Source: Coleofasciculus sp. B1-GNL1-01 (GTDB lineage: Bacteria; Cyanobacteriota; Cyanobacteriia; Cyanobacteriales; Coleofasciculaceae). From it: a stretch of DNA of 64,000 bases. Position numbers and translations under genes: made by a program. Under the pieces are notes generated by a model. That model had not been told where the DNA came from. It saw nothing but the letters and a program-made list of their open reading frames with translations, and searched no databases. The stretch is from NCBI GenBank assembly GCA_040220235.1, contig JAVJTO010000157.1; one strand, 5' to 3'. Positions 11,495 to 17,528 of the stretch are shown one piece after another. Positions within the stretch are counted from its first letter, which is position 1. Each line of letters begins with the position of its first letter.

Positions 11495-12526
11495 TCATAA
11501 ACTTGGTGCTTTAGAGGTAACAATCGGTTCAGCGACGCCCCATCCTTCTACCGGATCACATTCTATCTGACTGATGAGACTAATACCTGTATCAGTTTGA
11601 CGATTGACAGGTATTATCTGACAAGACTTAGTGAGTACGTTGGGTTTAATTTGCGATCGCGGACCTTGCCAAAGGGTATTTAGTTGAAAGTTATACCCCG
11701 ACTCCCGGAGCGAAATATCACCGAGACTCACGTCTTGCCACAAGTTGTCTTCTTTGATATCAGGAGAGGCAATTTCTTGCCTCACTTGGGCGTCAATCTG
11801 CTTAATTAGCTGAATCAGTTTTTGGCGTTCTCGAATTAGAAGAATTTGTTCGATATCTGACCACTCTTGGTTATTGAGCTGTTCTTCTAAGCGAGATGCT
11901 ACTAAATCTAAAATGGTAGTCCCACGGGGTAGCCTTTGTTTCGATTCATCGGTGGATAGTCTGACCACAAAGGCACTTTTTTCAAATGTATCAGACGCAA
12001 GTGTGGGATATTGAATTAACCAGTTTTGTACCAAAAAATAGAATTGAAACCAACTGCTTAGTATTAACTGACTTGTGAATAACCACACCAGCGGTTGACG
12101 TTTGTCTCTATCGGGTATTTTGGGTTGAAAATTCTCACCTAAACAAGTGGGCAATGCCGCAATTATTGCCGATATCAGGGGCCAGATCACTAAAGCGTAG
12201 GCTGGCAATTCGCCTGTAACAATGCCAACAATATAAATGGTAACCAACGCACCTGTAATCCAGGGACTTAAGAGGATTTTACCAATGCTGATGTCTTTAT
12301 TGCTAGTTGTTGCCCAATAGACACCTAAAATTAAAAACCACCAACTAAAACTCGCTAATAGAATTGTAAAAAGATTCGTCGCCAGAAACGACATTGCCCA
12401 CGAGAATACGCTTAACCCGATCAGGGTCTGCCAAGAGAAAGCTGTGTCCGGGTTAAAGATTTCAAAGATAGTTCTTAGGAGATTATTTACCCAATTTAAT
12501 ATATTGTTTAAAATTTTCCTAATCAT
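11495..12526 (-). CDS. fraD: septal junction protein FraD (DUF5357)
   Basis: FSWQTLI N-terminus, about 5 TM helices, WFQFYF, periplasmic domain with WQGP and two C-terminal Cys; directly downstream of fraC. Confidence 0.82.
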   Translation of the reverse strand: MIRKILNNILNWVNNLLRTIFEIFNPDTAFSWQTLIGLSVFSWAMSFLATNLFTILLASFSWWFLILGVYWATTSNKDISIGKILLSPWITGALVTIYIVGIVTGELPAYALVIWPLISAIIAALPTCLGENFQPKIPDRDKRQPLVWLFTSQLILSSWFQFYFLVQNWLIQYPTLASDTFEKSAFVVRLSTDESKQRLPRGTTILDLVASRLEEQLNNQEWSDIEQILLIRERQKLIQLIKQIDAQVRQEIASPDIKEDNLWQDVSLGDISLRESGYNFQLNTLWQGPRSQIKPNVLTKSCQIIPVNRQTDTGISLISQIECDPVEGWGVAEPIVTSKAPSL

Positions 12527-12618
12527 TGGTTTAATTTGAAGCTAAAGGTAAGAGAATTGGAGGTCGTTGTAACAGACTGAAAACTACTTAAATTCAGTAT
12601 TTATCGGTTGGGTATCGC

Positions 12619-13203
12619 TTAGAATAGAGTATTAAATCCAAGAATATTCAAGTCCATAAACCGTAAGACTAAAATCAGCAAGATAGCACTGTAGCTATAG
12701 GCATTAGCCAGTAGCAAAGTAAAAGCAGGATTGGGTTTAGGCTGGGTAATCTTCCGCTTGGGTTGCTTAAACAAGCTGGGTCTTTTGTTAGATATGTCGG
12801 AACTCATTTCAAACTGTTCTGGTTTATCATGAATCCATTGCTTTATCAGTTCAAAACCGATTATTTTAATAATAAAACTAAAAAAGAAAATCATGATACC
12901 AATCGAAATCAGTTGAGGATTTGGTGTATCTAATTGACTACCTAGGGGATGATCAAAGAAAATAAAGTTCACAATTTGAATTCGCAAAAATTGAGGCAAC
13001 AAAGTCTCTAGAACTAAAAATGTTAACCAACCTAGGACAACGCTCCACAAATTCAGCGAGGTAGCATATTGCACACTGGTTTTACGAGTAAGGTTTAGCC
13101 GTCGGTGCAAGACCCTAGCTTCTAGGGCGATCGCGACCAACAGGAATAAGATTTGAAAGAGAATCAGTTGGAGAGGTAAGACAATAGTTAGGTTATCTAC
13201 CAT
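12619..13203 (-). CDS. fraC: filament integrity protein FraC
   Basis: LPLQLILFQILFLLVAIALEA, YATSLNL, LLANAYSYSAI. Confidence 0.85.
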   Translation of the reverse strand: MVDNLTIVLPLQLILFQILFLLVAIALEARVLHRRLNLTRKTSVQYATSLNLWSVVLGWLTFLVLETLLPQFLRIQIVNFIFFDHPLGSQLDTPNPQLISIGIMIFFFSFIIKIIGFELIKQWIHDKPEQFEMSSDISNKRPSLFKQPKRKITQPKPNPAFTLLLANAYSYSAILLILVLRFMDLNILGFNTLF

Positions 13204-13447: not shown

Positions 13448-14581
13448 ATGACCAGAACAGGTATTGGTATTCGCACGGCGGCTGAGCGTACAGAACGGAT
13501 CACGGGTCAGATTCATGTTTACGATGGCATCGGTAAGGGGAAGTCTCAAGCCGCATTGGGCGTGGTTTTGCGCTCAATTGGTTTGGGAATCAACTGTGCG
13601 GAATCCAGTCGGGTCTTATTGTTACAGTTTCTTAAGGGACCGGGACGGAACTATGATGAGGATGCGGCGATTGAGGCGTTGCGACGGGCGTTTCCTCACT
13701 TGATTGATCAGGTTCGCACGGGACGAAGTGAGTTTTTTACCCAAGAGGAAGTGACGCGGTTTGACACGTTAGAGGCGCAGCGCGGTTGGGATGTGGCGAA
13801 AGGGGCGATCGCGTCCAATCTCTATTCGGTTGTGGTGCTGGATGAGTTGAATCCGTTGCTGGATTTGGGATTACTCCCGGTTGAGGAGGTGGTGCAAACC
13901 CTGAAAAATAAACCGCCGTCTCTGGAAGTGATTGTCACGGGACGCGGAACACCGCCAGCGCTGTTGGATTTGGCGGATTTACATAGTGAGTCGGTTCCTC
14001 ATGATCATCCGGTTTCTCGGGAACAGGGGATTGAGGGAATTGAAATTTATACGGGTGCGGGGAAAGGAAAATCAACTAATGCGTTAGGGAAGGCGTTACA
14101 AGCCATTGGTCGGGGAATTAGTACGGATAAATCCCACCGGGTAATGATTATGCAGTGGCTGAAGGGAGGAAGCGGATATACCGAAGACGCCGCGATCGCA
14201 GCCTTGCGTCAAAGTTACCCGAATCTGGTGGATCATCAGCGTTGTGGTCGAGATGCGATCGTTTGGCGGGGACAGCAGCAGATTTTGGATTATGTGGAAG
14301 CGGAACGGGGATGGGAAATTGCGAGGGCGGCGTTAGCGTCAGGGTTGTATAAAACAATTATTCTGGATGAACTGAATCCGACGGTTGACTTGGAACTGTT
14401 GCAGGTTGAACCGATTGTCGAGGCGCTGTTACGTAAACCTCGTGACACGGAGGTTATTATTACAGGTCGTTGTAAAAATCAACCTGCTTATTTTGAATTG
14501 GCGACGGTTCATTCGGAGATGATTTGTCACAAGCATTATTGTGACAAAGGGGTGGATTTGAAGCGAGGGGTGGATTTTTAA
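13448..14581 (+). CDS. cobO: cob(I)yrinic acid a,c-diamide adenosyltransferase (duplicated-domain cyanobacterial CobO/BtuR)
   Basis: Two copies of YxGxGKGKS, QF/WLKG, LDELN and TGR; ends GVDF. Confidence 0.92.
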   Translation: MTRTGIGIRTAAERTERITGQIHVYDGIGKGKSQAALGVVLRSIGLGINCAESSRVLLLQFLKGPGRNYDEDAAIEALRRAFPHLIDQVRTGRSEFFTQEEVTRFDTLEAQRGWDVAKGAIASNLYSVVVLDELNPLLDLGLLPVEEVVQTLKNKPPSLEVIVTGRGTPPALLDLADLHSESVPHDHPVSREQGIEGIEIYTGAGKGKSTNALGKALQAIGRGISTDKSHRVMIMQWLKGGSGYTEDAAIAALRQSYPNLVDHQRCGRDAIVWRGQQQILDYVEAERGWEIARAALASGLYKTIILDELNPTVDLELLQVEPIVEALLRKPRDTEVIITGRCKNQPAYFELATVHSEMICHKHYCDKGVDLKRGVDF

Positions 14582-14679
14582 GGTATTTGTCATTCGTCAT
14601 ACTCAAGGGAACGCCAAGCAAGTTATGTCCTTTGTCAGGGAACAGTTTTTCTATTTGCCTCTATCCTTTATATAACAAG

Positions 14680-15200
14680 CATTACAGCCGATAATCTTCA
14701 AAGGAGCGATCGCGGTTTTGAACGCCTAAAGATAGACTCAAGTCTGAATCCGAGTTCCTGCTTAGGTTTGAGTGCGATTCTACCTCACGAGTGATGGTTT
14801 CCCCGGTTCTGTATTGATACATTAGTAATAGCAAAGGAAAACGGCACTGGATGGAGGTTGTTCCGCTGTGATCCATTGTCGGACATCGAAGGAGAGCGAC
14901 GTCAGATGTCTGGACAGTGTCGGATAAGCGATAGCTGAGGCGGTTGTGGAGTTTTTGTCGCTTCCTCCACTTCGTCACTACCAATGGGGGACGAAACTCC
15001 CCATCAGAGCGGTCAAAGGTAGTGAACGCCTAGAGTCGTGGCTTATAACAAATCGATATATCACTCAAACCGTCTGGGCTGATGTCCGAGGCGGTTTGTG
15101 TTATGAGTTTGGCATCACTCTGTTCTACAGCACTTTCTAACACCGTGTAGTACAGCAATCATCAGATAGCTTTGCTCTACTCTTGTTTAGCTGTATCACA
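14680..15200 (+). ncRNA. candidate large structured non-coding RNA (unclassified)
   Basis: At least six consecutive stems, several dependent on G.U pairs on the + strand; no credible CDS. Confidence 0.4.
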
Positions 15201-15235
15201 TGGAGTCTGAAAACGCTATAATCAACGTTGTAGAC

Positions 15236-15268
15236 AGATCCCCAACTTCTCCAAGAAGTCGGGGATCT
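15236..15268. repeat. 33-bp palindromic REP-like element
   Basis: AGATCCCCAACTTCT-CCA-AGAAGTCGGGGATCT. Confidence 0.85.
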
Positions 15269-15373
15269 TGCTTAGAGACTGTACCTCATCCGCTCAGAAT
15301 AGCCAATCTGTTTCACCCCGGCAGCAATCGTCTCTATTGCTTGCACCACAATCATTAGAGCCGATAACCTCAA

Positions 15374-15492
15374 GCTGTTCGGCATTTAAACCTTAATATC
15401 AATAACGGCGAAAGCCTTGTAGTGCGTTTAGCGAAGCCATGCCGAAGGCTTTAGCGAAGCCATGCCGCAGGCTTTGCATCTTGCTCGCTACT
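15374..15492. mobile_element. partial MITE (family of 46979-47105) with a nested duplicated REP
   Basis: AAGCTGTTCGGCATTTAAACC end matches the reverse complement of the 47105 end; (TTTAGCGAAGCCATGCCG.AGGC)x2 inside. Confidence 0.7.
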
Positions 15493-15497
15493 AATAC

Positions 15498-17528
15498 TTA
15501 ACCCTCTTTTTGCTGCAAAAATTCCTGCAAATCCCTCTGCACCTGCTGATATAATTGCGGCGACTCACCCTTTAACCCAATTAAACTATATAACTTTACC
15601 GTCCCCGCCCGTCCTCTTACCTCTTCTTCCCCTACCGACACCACCTCAACCTCATCTTTGACAACTTGATACAGAGAATCGGTAATCAAAATATCTGTGC
15701 CAAATTTCTTCGTTAACCCCTCTACCCGACTCGCTACATTCACCGCATCACCAATCACCGCATATTCTCGACGACGCTGAGAACCAATATCCCCAGCAAT
15801 TAACTCCCCATAATTAATCCCAATCCCATTAAATAACGGAATTCGTTCTTCCTGACGCCATTCCTCACGTAGCTGATGCAAGGCTTTTCGCATCCCTAAT
15901 GCCGCACGAATGGCATTCATCGCATCGGTTTCTTCCCCTTCAGATACCGGACAACCAAACTCAGCCATTACCGCATCGCCAATAAATTTATCCACAGTAC
16001 CGCCAGCATCTAAAATCACCTCAACCATGTCATTGAGATATCGATTCAGTTGTCGCACTAATCGGACAGGTGAAATTTGGGAGGATAGGGTGGTAAAGCC
16101 GCGAATGTCGGAGAATAAAATAGCGGCTTTTAATTTACGTCCTTTTAGTAATTCCTGATAATCATCGTGTTGCTTGAGAATTTCTTGAACGACAGGTGCG
16201 GCGACATACCGTTCTAAGGTACTGCGGAAGCGGCGTTTTTCAATTTGATCCCCAATGAAAAGTGCTGTAAAGTAGGAAAAACTATTTAGGGTCATCGCGA
16301 TCGCAGGAACGGCAATGGGGAAAATCAGTCTGGCGCTGCTATAGCCTAAAAATGCTAGTCCTACCCAAACCACTGCCATCCCCAATCCCCAAAACAAGCT
16401 TGCCGCAGTACGTCGGGGGAGTTTATACAACAGGATAGCGGTTCCCCCAACCAAGACAAACACAAACAATCCCTCTAGCCACGGATTGGGGATGGCGATA
16501 GCGATTGAACGTCCTTCCATTAAGGTGGCGATCGCGTTAGCATGAAGTTCCACCCCTGGCATATTGAATTGGATAGGTGTCGGCACAAAATCACCGATAT
16601 TTTGCTCATCGGCTGTTGTGCCAATCAAGACAATTTTGTCTTTAAAGGTTTCTTCTCGTAAATGCACGTCCCATATATCTGATGCCAGAACCTGCCAAAA
16701 TGGAATCGTGGTAAAAACACCTTGATTCTGAGTTGGTGTTCCGTAGAAGAAAACCTGACTCCCTTTTGGGGGTGGATAGCTAACATTTGCCACGTCTAAG
16801 GTAGCTTTAGCAAATGAAGGAATCCTTTCTAATCCCAACGGTTGCAGAATTTCCCGGCTGTATTCATTCCCCAGCCGATACACATTCCCATCCACCTCTG
16901 GGGGTAAAAAGTTGACTAAACCCAGTTGCGCCGAATCTGGATAAAGTTCGGGTAACGGCTTATACAACTCATACGTCGTAAACCCTTGGGGATCAATGGT
17001 ATCTTCGTAGACAGCCGCTAGCACAATGCGATCGCTATAGTTAGTTAATGCTTGTTTAAACGGCTGATCATCTTCAGCACCATACCCACTGGGAAGATCA
17101 AATAGTAAATCAAAGGATACTGACTTAGCACCCGCCGCCATTAACCGTTCAAGCACCTCAGCATAAGCGGTTCGCTTCCAGGGAAACGGTGGTGTTAGCA
17201 ACTCCACAACCAAGGCTTTATTCGGATCAACGGGATTGCTGTAGCGTTCTGATGCCGTTAATGATTGATCATCAATCGCTAAAATTACAATATCATCAGG
17301 CGGTACAACGGGTCCACGTAATTCAATGAACCACTTTTGGCTTTGCCGTTCAGCTAGCTGTATAAGTGTTCCCTGCCAAACCGTTACTCCAGCACCGACA
17401 ATCGCCCAGCATCCCATTAGCATCAAACCAATTCGTTCGGGACGCCAAAACGGTTGGGAGTGACTCCGGCGACGCCGTCGGATGCGTTTTCGTCGTTGTT
17501 TTTCCAGCCATTGCCACCAGTGATTCAT
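15498..17528 (-). CDS. CHASE2-domain class III adenylate cyclase
   Basis: IVILAID, PFPWKR, MPGVELHA (CHASE2), 3 TM, FSDIRGFT, DKFIGDAVMA, IGDAVNVASRVEG. Confidence 0.94.
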   Translation of the reverse strand: MNHWWQWLEKQRRKRIRRRRRSHSQPFWRPERIGLMLMGCWAIVGAGVTVWQGTLIQLAERQSQKWFIELRGPVVPPDDIVILAIDDQSLTASERYSNPVDPNKALVVELLTPPFPWKRTAYAEVLERLMAAGAKSVSFDLLFDLPSGYGAEDDQPFKQALTNYSDRIVLAAVYEDTIDPQGFTTYELYKPLPELYPDSAQLGLVNFLPPEVDGNVYRLGNEYSREILQPLGLERIPSFAKATLDVANVSYPPPKGSQVFFYGTPTQNQGVFTTIPFWQVLASDIWDVHLREETFKDKIVLIGTTADEQNIGDFVPTPIQFNMPGVELHANAIATLMEGRSIAIAIPNPWLEGLFVFVLVGGTAILLYKLPRRTAASLFWGLGMAVVWVGLAFLGYSSARLIFPIAVPAIAMTLNSFSYFTALFIGDQIEKRRFRSTLERYVAAPVVQEILKQHDDYQELLKGRKLKAAILFSDIRGFTTLSSQISPVRLVRQLNRYLNDMVEVILDAGGTVDKFIGDAVMAEFGCPVSEGEETDAMNAIRAALGMRKALHQLREEWRQEERIPLFNGIGINYGELIAGDIGSQRRREYAVIGDAVNVASRVEGLTKKFGTDILITDSLYQVVKDEVEVVSVGEEEVRGRAGTVKLYSLIGLKGESPQLYQQVQRDLQEFLQQKEG

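Follow-up and report, generated by a model that had tools for sequence, protein, structure and literature searches.

Full-length CyVA-1 beside cobO in Coleofasciculus: a probable two-domain RNA co-distributed with a predicted six-helix membrane protein

Introduction

Two related junction domains are found in the glycine and nadA (NAD+-I) riboswitches, in the ZTP riboswitch a variable linker and a long-range pseudoknot connect two subdomains, and the phi29 pRNA carries complementary 'hands' that could pair between molecules. Protein-free multimerization through loop contacts has been described for the RNA manA (bioRxiv 10.64898/2026.07.01.735769), and it was reasoning from adjacency and co-occurrence that led to the pairing of the OLE RNA with the protein OapA (PMC11332333). 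The RNA of concern here, CyVA-1 (RF02965), was reported as an intergenic element of cyanobacteria and a few Acidobacteriota, averaging 78 nt and with no function assigned (Weinberg et al., 2017, PMC5737381), and it occurs at low abundance in a metatranscriptome of halite cyanobacteria (10.1101/761684). Rfam lists the family under the type sRNA. In the literature covered on CyVA-1 and RF02965, no account of a second domain, of pseudoknots or of protein partners was found (the supplement of the discovery paper may say more), and CyVA-1 is absent from the supplements of the CaCoFold paper.

The locus described below lies in a stretch of 64,000 nucleotides (the window) of contig JAVJTO010000157.1 from Coleofasciculus sp. 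B1-GNL1-01 (assembly GCA_040220235.1), for which an original prediction made from the letters alone had placed a single undescribed structured RNA of ~500 nt at 14680-15200, downstream of cobO.

Identity and extent of the RNA

CyVA-1 is the sole Rfam match across the whole window. It falls at 14844-14920 (+) with 82.2 bits against a gathering cut-off of 41.4 and an E of 9e-18, and takes in the full model, positions 1-77 of 77; in 14300-15600, at E up to 10, it is again the sole match, accompanied there by a second, weak CyVA-1 hit of 17 bits at 14937-15002. The 5' domain is consequently not undescribed, and a match to a known Rfam family, which the original prediction itself had named as evidence against it, is what was found. 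Its statement that no rnpB, ssrA, 6S, cobalamin riboswitch, HEARO or group II signature could be recognized is confirmed by the scans: group II intron, HEARO, 6S, tmRNA and RNase P gave no match in the whole window or in 14300-15600 at E up to 10, the OLE model gave none in the same two scans, and neither the cobalamin riboswitch nor any other riboswitch model scored in 14300-15600 at E up to 10. The features of the locus are as follows.

13448..14581, + strand: cobO/btuR corrinoid adenosyltransferase gene (PF02572, E 4e-89), the upstream neighbour
14655..14829, no strand assigned: unconserved leader outside the conserved RNA, showing no conservation and a stem broken in relatives
14815..14823, + strand: candidate extended -10, which would weakly imply a start near 14830
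14844..14920, + strand: domain 1, the Rfam CyVA-1 three-way junction, from the Rfam match and covariation
14921..14937, + strand: variable linker, 12-72 nt across 61 homologues
14938..15031, + strand: domain 2, outside the Rfam model, from its company with domain 1 and covariation
15066..15110, + strand: hairpin 15066-75/15089-98 with a T-rich tail, a likely intrinsic terminator
15126..15220, no strand assigned: MITE-like insertion bounded by TA, 3' of the terminator and outside the RNA
15498..17528, - strand: CHASE2 adenylate/guanylate cyclase gene (PF05226, PF00211), convergent, downstream

Searched with the domain-1 model alone, 151 cyanobacterial genomes gave 23 loci, spread over 18 of them, and in all 23 (22 aligned, L034 by model) the conservation continues for ~110 nt past the 3' end of the Rfam model, with domain 2 accompanying domain 1 each time; nothing is conserved 5' of P1 in these 23 loci of 18 genomes. 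The conserved RNA thus occupies 14844-15031 (+), ~190 nt or more than twice the catalogued CyVA-1 length, and the Rfam model and the 78-nt mean length given by the discoverers account for just the 5' 40% of the full RNA (PMC5737381). The source genome has a second CyVA-1 copy on another contig, with a similarity (79% identity) confined to window positions 14821-15023, and among seven same-genus copies of the locus, two of which (L162 and L188) are near-identical, divergence from the window is 9.4% in 14680-14829 vs 3.0% in 14844-15031. By sequence comparison, 14844-15031 is a second genomic copy of full-length CyVA-1, a member of a known family, and this copy is under purifying selection. The single RNA of ~500 nt shrinks accordingly to a conserved part of just ~190 nt plus a terminator, and the fold of 14680-15200 shows no excess over shuffles (z -1.16 on the + strand, -1.82 on the - strand).

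Structure, covariation and cross-domain pseudoknots

Homologues were collected with a two-motif pattern, which has at least 121 matches in GTDB genomes; 141 candidate loci yielded 126 past a domain-2 filter, 62 non-redundant at 88% and 61 aligned, L034 being kept out of alignment A1 on account of a repeat insertion. The 15 pattern matches (of 141) that failed the filter comprise four that are real by the model (L076, L092, L150, L133) and 11 chance matches, and five domain-1 loci missed by the pattern, with model scores of 119-173 bits, are unaligned. The search pattern or the filter imposes the pairing of P5, the AA dinucleotide of the P7 loop and those letters of L3 and L5 that do not vary. 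There are nine helices in all, two of them pseudoknots; with strand L6 they lie as follows, all on the + strand.

P1, 14844-49/14915-20: domain 1
P2, 14851-56/14871-76: domain 1, with the pyrimidine-rich loop L2
P3, 14879-87/14905-13: domain 1, with the purine-rich loop L3
P4, 14938-42/15027-31: domain 2
P5, 14946-51/14965-70: domain 2, with loop L5
P6, 14975-82/15018-25: domain 2
P7, 14987-91/14998-15002: domain 2, with a six-base T-loop-like cap
L6, 15003-17: purine-rich strand of domain 2
PK1, L2 14862-14867 with L6 15008-15013: five of six pairs in this copy
PK2, L3 14892-14900 with L5 14957-14964: one G bulged

Both domains are three-way junctions, and the core length is 180-242 nt in the 61 homologues, in which 91.3% of 3530 cells are paired, vs 72.4% in shuffles and 39-49% in slid controls. 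Double changes are present in 53 of the 58 pairs, a covariation that speaks for a structured RNA over 14844-15031. In domain 1, the paired cells amount to 78% for P1, 74% for P2 and 93% for P3, with double changes at every pair. When column pairs were ranked without bias by G-test against a tree-based null, nested helix pairs took the first 15 places, the weaker column pairs taken alone (E 1-11) lying below significance. The excess of G-U cells over A-C cells (245 vs 53) places the RNA on the + strand, which bears out the proposal of RNA-level selection on that strand. All stems and motifs listed in the original prediction are present where it put them, and three of the stems (14877-14916, 14946-70 and 14984-15004) are P3, P5 and P7, real helices of the covarying RNA. 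The notion of two modules was right by luck: there are two domains, 14844-14920 and 14938-15031, which are not the repeats at 14698-728 and 15013-32. The MFE z-score of the conserved core is -0.47, and such scores overlook the core because pseudoknots are unscored. The P7 loop takes 12 forms among the homologues, with a consensus that we take to resemble a T-loop; on the strength of this variation a hammerhead core at the P7 loop was rejected. Translation from the Shine-Dalgarno-like run was likewise rejected, the alignment having no conserved start codon.

The main feature of the RNA, two cross-domain loop-loop pseudoknots, had been missed by the original prediction. PK1, which is absent from both the search pattern and the filter, is paired in 95.9% of cells and has double changes at six of six pairs (slid controls 24-53%), and PK2 is paired in 99.2% of cells, the invariant L3 letters in it being set by the search pattern. 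One long-range pair of each (14864:15011 in PK1, 14896:14961 in PK2) reaches an E of 0.025 with the tree-based null, and on a tree built without the pseudoknot columns the shared changes come to 22 of 33 possible for PK1 and 17 of 22 for PK2, vs a mean of 14% in 90 control pairs. Each domain has one U-rich pyrimidine loop and one purine loop in matching registers, and Watson-Crick pairing across domains (87% and 96%) exceeds that within a domain (64% and 65%). Covariation of this kind does not separate pairing in one molecule from pairing between two. On these data, the two-domain architecture with cross-domain pseudoknots is very probable. The two domains may also be kin, as the Rfam domain-1 model weakly matches domain 2 in four genomes (E 8e-5 to 5e-4) and sequence profiles place nine of 61 above 0 bits vs two of 305 shuffles in one direction and, more modestly, four of 61 vs one of 305 shuffles (three of 61 reversed) in the other. 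It is likely but not proven that the RNA arose by duplication of one unit that had a pyrimidine and a purine 'hand'.

Flanking elements and expression

The leader holds a degenerate dispersed repeat (~14659-14697) and a chance stem at 14736-73. This stem (14736-47/14762-73), a part of the originally proposed RNA, has a z of 0.02, and two to three of its 12 pairs are broken, uncompensated, in six of seven same-genus copies. The recurring motif does have both its copies, the 5' one (14719-28) being mutated in six of seven same-genus copies, and the strains behind the metatranscriptome contigs carry the same changes in the first stem and 5' motif as do these copies. Both the 5' motif and the TATAAC adjoin the dispersed repeat; the TATAAC, once proposed as a -10 at 14671, falls within this repeat (family D1) and is lost in two of seven copies. 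A palindrome at 14706-13 is presumably HIP1. A perfect 10-bp complement, 14765-74/15062-71, was considered and rejected, as it is paired in six of seven copies with no double change, is absent from other genera and has an estimated ~0.4 chance matches expected. Short heptamer-like tandem repeats, several-fold longer in G151 and G153, follow the cobO stop at 14582-14625.

On the 3' side, the region 15036-15110 has a z of -4.95, and terminator-like hairpins occur in 25 of 60 3' flanks of homologues vs two of 60 5' flanks and 0-2 in shuffles; a similar terminator stands 3' of a copy at another locus in another genus. The stem formerly drawn at 15041-15108 stands in its inner part, 15066-75/15089-98, which is paired 10/10 in all seven copies, and fails in its outer part, 15041-50/15099-108, broken in five of seven. 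From these comparisons 15066-15110 probably serves as an intrinsic terminator, both for the RNA and for whatever transcription runs on from cobO. The hairpin 15066-75/15089-98 is still found beside cobO in two same-genus genomes missing 14623-15065; an 'empty' cobO site that retains the terminator of the RNA looks like a deletion, i.e., a loss. The last of the predicted stems, 15151-56/15190-95, belongs not to the RNA but to the element at 15126-15220, which is a MITE by the usual traits including target duplication: it is 95 bp long, non-coding, with short terminal inverted repeats, 11 near-full-length copies in the genome and at least two subfamilies, close relatives have the empty site, and two RNA runs contain the joint 15125-15219. 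Further dispersed repeats, among them a palindromic element with dozens of genome copies, lie at 15232-15290 and ~15325-15500, where the summed metatranscriptome contig depth is very high, and a 23-nt tandem pair lies at 15427-72.

Upstream of the core, 16 of 48 homologues carry the promoter-like pattern G.TA...T between -40 and -12, compared with 3-8 in control windows. In four metatranscriptomes the contig depth over cobO resembles that over the intergenic region. A fifth contributes, within 14400-15225, just two 154-nt contigs of depth 3.8, which span 14755-15037 and may come from a single fragment. The contig start at 14755 is upstream of the proposed start at ~14830 and does not fit it. 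The candidate -10 and the terminator would together define a ~270-nt transcript, from ~14830 to near 15105.

Genomic neighbours and distribution

Flanks are available for 52 non-redundant loci. Their downstream genes share the strand of the RNA in 27 cases and oppose it in 22, with no common class, and the upstream gene shares it in 35 of 51 and is divergent in 16 of 51, or 20 vs 16 where the partner gene introduced below is left aside. Unbiased downstream genes and partly divergent upstream genes speak for a stand-alone gene and against a riboswitch. To judge from these neighbourhoods, CyVA-1 is independent of its flanking genes, and it is probably a stand-alone trans-acting RNA. The link to cobO drawn by the original prediction is correct to the extent that cobO adjoins the RNA here, and it goes no further than this genus, the only one in which the two are neighbours. 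The cobO product has 377 aa and two tandem CobA/CobO/BtuR domains; genes for the filament-integrity protein FraC and a DUF5357 protein lie at 11495-13203 (-), upstream of cobO and divergent from it.

Copies at this locus are present in five of eight same-genus genomes (one, G154, with a tandem duplicate that includes the 5' leader), two of eight have just the other copy, and one of eight is without the RNA. Genomes hold one to three dispersed copies, with tandem duplicates and decayed copies occurring, and an ancestral locus beside the membrane-protein gene is stable across families. Beyond cyanobacteria, true homologues were found in four Acidobacteriota genomes and in one labelled as a beta proteobacterium, and 0 of 120 further Acidobacteriota genomes (the phylum of G171) carry the RNA. 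The searches for phage copies were negative: pattern scans of viral contigs gave 1, 1, 0 and 11 matches, of which the first two fail the RNA model and 10 of the 11, scanned for CyVA-1, are without a match. Patterns of this kind would overlook single-unit relatives of rearranged order. BLAST gave no match among phages or plasmids.

Several individual loci may be mentioned. L192, L193 and L224 are decayed or partly deleted RNA copies, the L224 genome having the SnoaL-like protein and not the membrane protein. In Chamaesiphon-like genomes (L018/L035, L116, L145/L146) the RNA and a ~130-aa gene are duplicated in tandem, and the duplicate stands ahead of a peptidase-domain ABC-transporter-like gene. 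In some Nostocales (L102, L113, L052) the module adjoins what we take to be orange- or helical-carotenoid-protein-like genes. The other RNA copy of the source genome (L002) has the membrane-protein gene (699-1391) on one side and, on the other, a run of genes presumed to be rtcB-, pncB-, nadD- and nrtR-like, and a presumed nicotinate phosphoribosyltransferase-like gene lies downstream of the RNA in five of 52 loci.

Candidate protein partners

The original prediction had advised a search of homologue neighbourhoods for a partner protein, and an unannotated protein of ~230 aa with six predicted membrane helices is encoded directly upstream of the RNA in 15 of 52 non-redundant loci, including the other RNA copy of the source genome. 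It has no Pfam family at E up to 1 and no NCBIfam family, its Atlas matches are unnamed cyanobacterial clusters only, and a search for longer fused forms found none. The predicted fold (pLDDT 87.5) has six helices; Foldseek at E 0.001 gave no match for this model, and the best natural fold matches are TMEM45A (Z 11.8, rmsd 4.2, 168 aligned), SatP (Z 8.1) and UreI (Z 7.1), Z-scores that, for the predicted model, are in the range expected of helical bundles.

In a sample of 150 genomes, the RNA is present in 18, the membrane protein in 23 and both in 16. A long form of the protein, which aligns to residue 227-230, is found in 15 of the 150 genomes, all of them RNA carriers (15 of 18 carriers) and three with the gene on other contigs; eight of eight families with the long form have the RNA, with a family-level Fisher p of 8e-6 for a long/short split drawn post hoc, after seeing the data. 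A conserved C-terminal helix, at residues ~203-230, is present in this RNA-tracking form only. The seven genomes with the protein only have the short form and are without RNA, and G127, an RNA carrier, has just the short form. A short paralogue without the C-terminal extension (in G002, G093, G005, G164 and Nostocaceae-like genomes) is found alongside the RNA in some cases and without it in others, and several of its Microcoleus-like copies contain stops. Out of sample, none of five genomes without the RNA has the membrane protein and four of five with the RNA do (two on other contigs), and the same-genus genome without the RNA is also without both the membrane protein and the SnoaL-like protein. 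The protein is absent from the cyanobacterial carriers G083, G011 and G165, and was not found in five of five non-cyanobacterial carriers, metagenome-assembled genomes in which distant homologues could be missed.

A secreted protein of the SnoaL/SgcJ family also adjoins the RNA in 11 of 93 loci, in mixed orientations; in the sample it is present in seven of 150 genomes, all RNA carriers and none with the gene adjacent, and one RNA-negative genome that has it may hold a decayed RNA. Beyond these two families, 28 loci yielded no further neighbour that recurs. Linkage or shared habitat can produce such co-occurrence, and related genomes are not independent. As the distribution indicates, in cyanobacteria the RNA and the membrane protein are mostly kept or lost together; a functional link between them is somewhat better than an even bet, and a direct complex of the two somewhat less than an even one.

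Proposed mechanism and alternative explanations

The reading that we prefer, with a probability of roughly 40%, is that full-length CyVA-1 is a trans-acting scaffold RNA of a membrane-protein complex, the co-distribution suggesting an OLE-like RNA-membrane-protein module. The ~270-nt transcript would fold into a compact two-domain clasp via two swapped loop-loop helices, on which the U-rich loop strands might form triples, and the T-loop-like P7 cap could serve as a docking site. The RNA, perhaps bound to the cytoplasmic ends of the membrane protein, would then act in trans as the scaffold of a membrane-associated complex with the six-helix protein, in the manner of OLE and OapA, and, together with the secreted SnoaL-like protein, may have an envelope or stress role in mat- or crust-forming cyanobacteria. 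A bolder version, which we hold doubtful, would have fused pRNA-like units oligomerize via swapped kissing loops on the six-helix protein, with the SnoaL-like protein as third component.

The same loop-loop helices, formed between molecules, could build dimers, rings or cages with no protein at all, the neighbouring proteins being incidental. Such self-assembly would be favoured by complementary 'hands' that sit on different domains with a linker of 12-72 nt between them, some RNA carriers are without the membrane protein, and short natural RNAs do assemble by kissing loops (bioRxiv 10.64898/2026.07.01.735769); yet two covalently joined domains can satisfy both pairings inside one molecule, the retention of an unlinked long-form protein would be left unexplained, and no phage copies were found in the viral-contig pattern scans or by BLAST against phages. 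We judge protein-free assembly, the chief alternative, unlikely, though it can coexist with the membrane-protein scaffold. Lower still is the probability of a cis element, either a tandem-aptamer riboswitch (e.g., for cobalamin or NAD) or a 3'-UTR element that stabilizes the upstream transcript. Tandem related junction domains, a trait of glycine and nadA riboswitches, would agree with it, as would the strand that the upstream gene shares with the RNA in 35 of 51 cases, the presumed nicotinate phosphoribosyltransferase-like gene downstream in five of 52 and the adjacent cobO; but cobO is adjacent in this genus only, riboswitch models give no match in 14300-15600 even at E up to 10, the downstream orientation is 27 vs 22 with no common gene class, the upstream bias falls to 20 vs 16 without the partner gene, and here the RNA is followed by a constitutive-looking terminator and a convergent gene.

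One may also picture a base-pairing sRNA or sponge, with the Shine-Dalgarno-like purine run of L3, or else the U-rich loops, set free to capture mRNAs, ribosomes or a regulatory protein. This would accord with the Rfam type, with a stand-alone gene bearing a terminator and with the low abundance in halite cyanobacteria (10.1101/761684). All four loops, however, are engaged in covarying pairs of intramolecular type and change in step, a behaviour not easily reconciled with one unchanging target outside the RNA; the account is distinctly improbable. We think slightly less of a selfish, non-autonomous mobile RNA or DNA element with a structure serving its own spread: the one to three dispersed copies per genome, the tandem duplicates, the decayed copies and the patchiness in Acidobacteriota (0 of 120 further genomes) are what it would leave behind, but the copy number is low, the ancestral locus beside the membrane-protein gene is stable across families, the core is conserved three times better than its flanks, and the 'empty' cobO site with its retained terminator looks like a deletion. 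Very little probability remains for one undescribed RNA of ~500 nt with two modules marked by the repeated motif. Its stems exist, the tandem duplicates of G154 include the 5' leader and one RNA contig reaches 14755; against it stand the Rfam match, the 5' stem and motif broken in six of seven close copies, the last stem inside the MITE and the lack of a folding excess. A decayed minus-strand protein gene, the other refutation that the original prediction had envisaged, can practically be dismissed: there is an open minus frame of 100 codons at 14682-14984, but Pfam gives no significant match (best E 0.08) and tblastn no match in plasmids, just 13 of 61 homologues have any open minus frame, with lengths even over the three phases, and the covariation already refutes it.

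Comparison with known systems

With the catalogued CyVA-1 (RF02965), the RNA shares the three-way junction with two hairpins, supported by covariation, and the stand-alone intergenic placement with no tie to the downstream gene (27 vs 22); it goes beyond that entry, and beyond the Rfam model, by a second domain, the two pseudoknots between the domains, the T-loop-like hairpin and the terminator, as well as by its candidate protein partners. The cobalamin riboswitch differs in standing 5' of cobalamin genes, whereas the RNA here is 3' of cobO, and from the tandem-aptamer and ZTP riboswitches CyVA-1 differs in having no Rfam match to them, no expression platform and no consistent downstream gene. 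Two multistem junctions, two pseudoknots and occurrence in more than one phylum give full CyVA-1 the traits by which its discoverers rank RNAs as 'biochemically sophisticated' (PMC5737381). Like CyVA-1, the manA and EGFOA RNAs have ~200 nt or less and several kissing-loop contacts (bioRxiv 10.64898/2026.07.01.735769). These RNAs and pRNA differ in that there is no sequence or model match and that in CyVA-1 two related units are fused, so that the pairing can close intramolecularly; the complementary loops that kissing-loop multimers have in common are seen here as covarying loops. With its 190 nt, the RNA is an easy target for probing and cryo-EM, by which one can test if swapped kissing loops build oligomers.

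The nearest functional parallel suggested by the co-distribution is OLE, which like CyVA-1 is a structured RNA of unexplained biochemistry that adjoins and co-occurs with a membrane protein and has decayed copies where the protein is missing (PMC11332333). OLE differs in its size of ~600 nt and its occurrence in Bacillota, compared with 180-242 nt for CyVA-1, and OapA is CNNM/DUF21-like (PMC11332333), whereas the CyVA-1 partner has no CNNM/DUF21 match; the co-occurrence of CyVA-1 is also looser than that of OLE, with 15 of 18 carriers and 0 of 5 outside cyanobacteria. The co-distributed membrane and SnoaL-like proteins nonetheless offer the first concrete handles on the function of CyVA-1, a clue of the kind that opened up OLE RNA, and if fused units should indeed oligomerize on the membrane protein, CyVA-1 would join OLE as another, unrelated kind of membrane-bound RNA machine, at work in mat- and crust-forming cyanobacteria.
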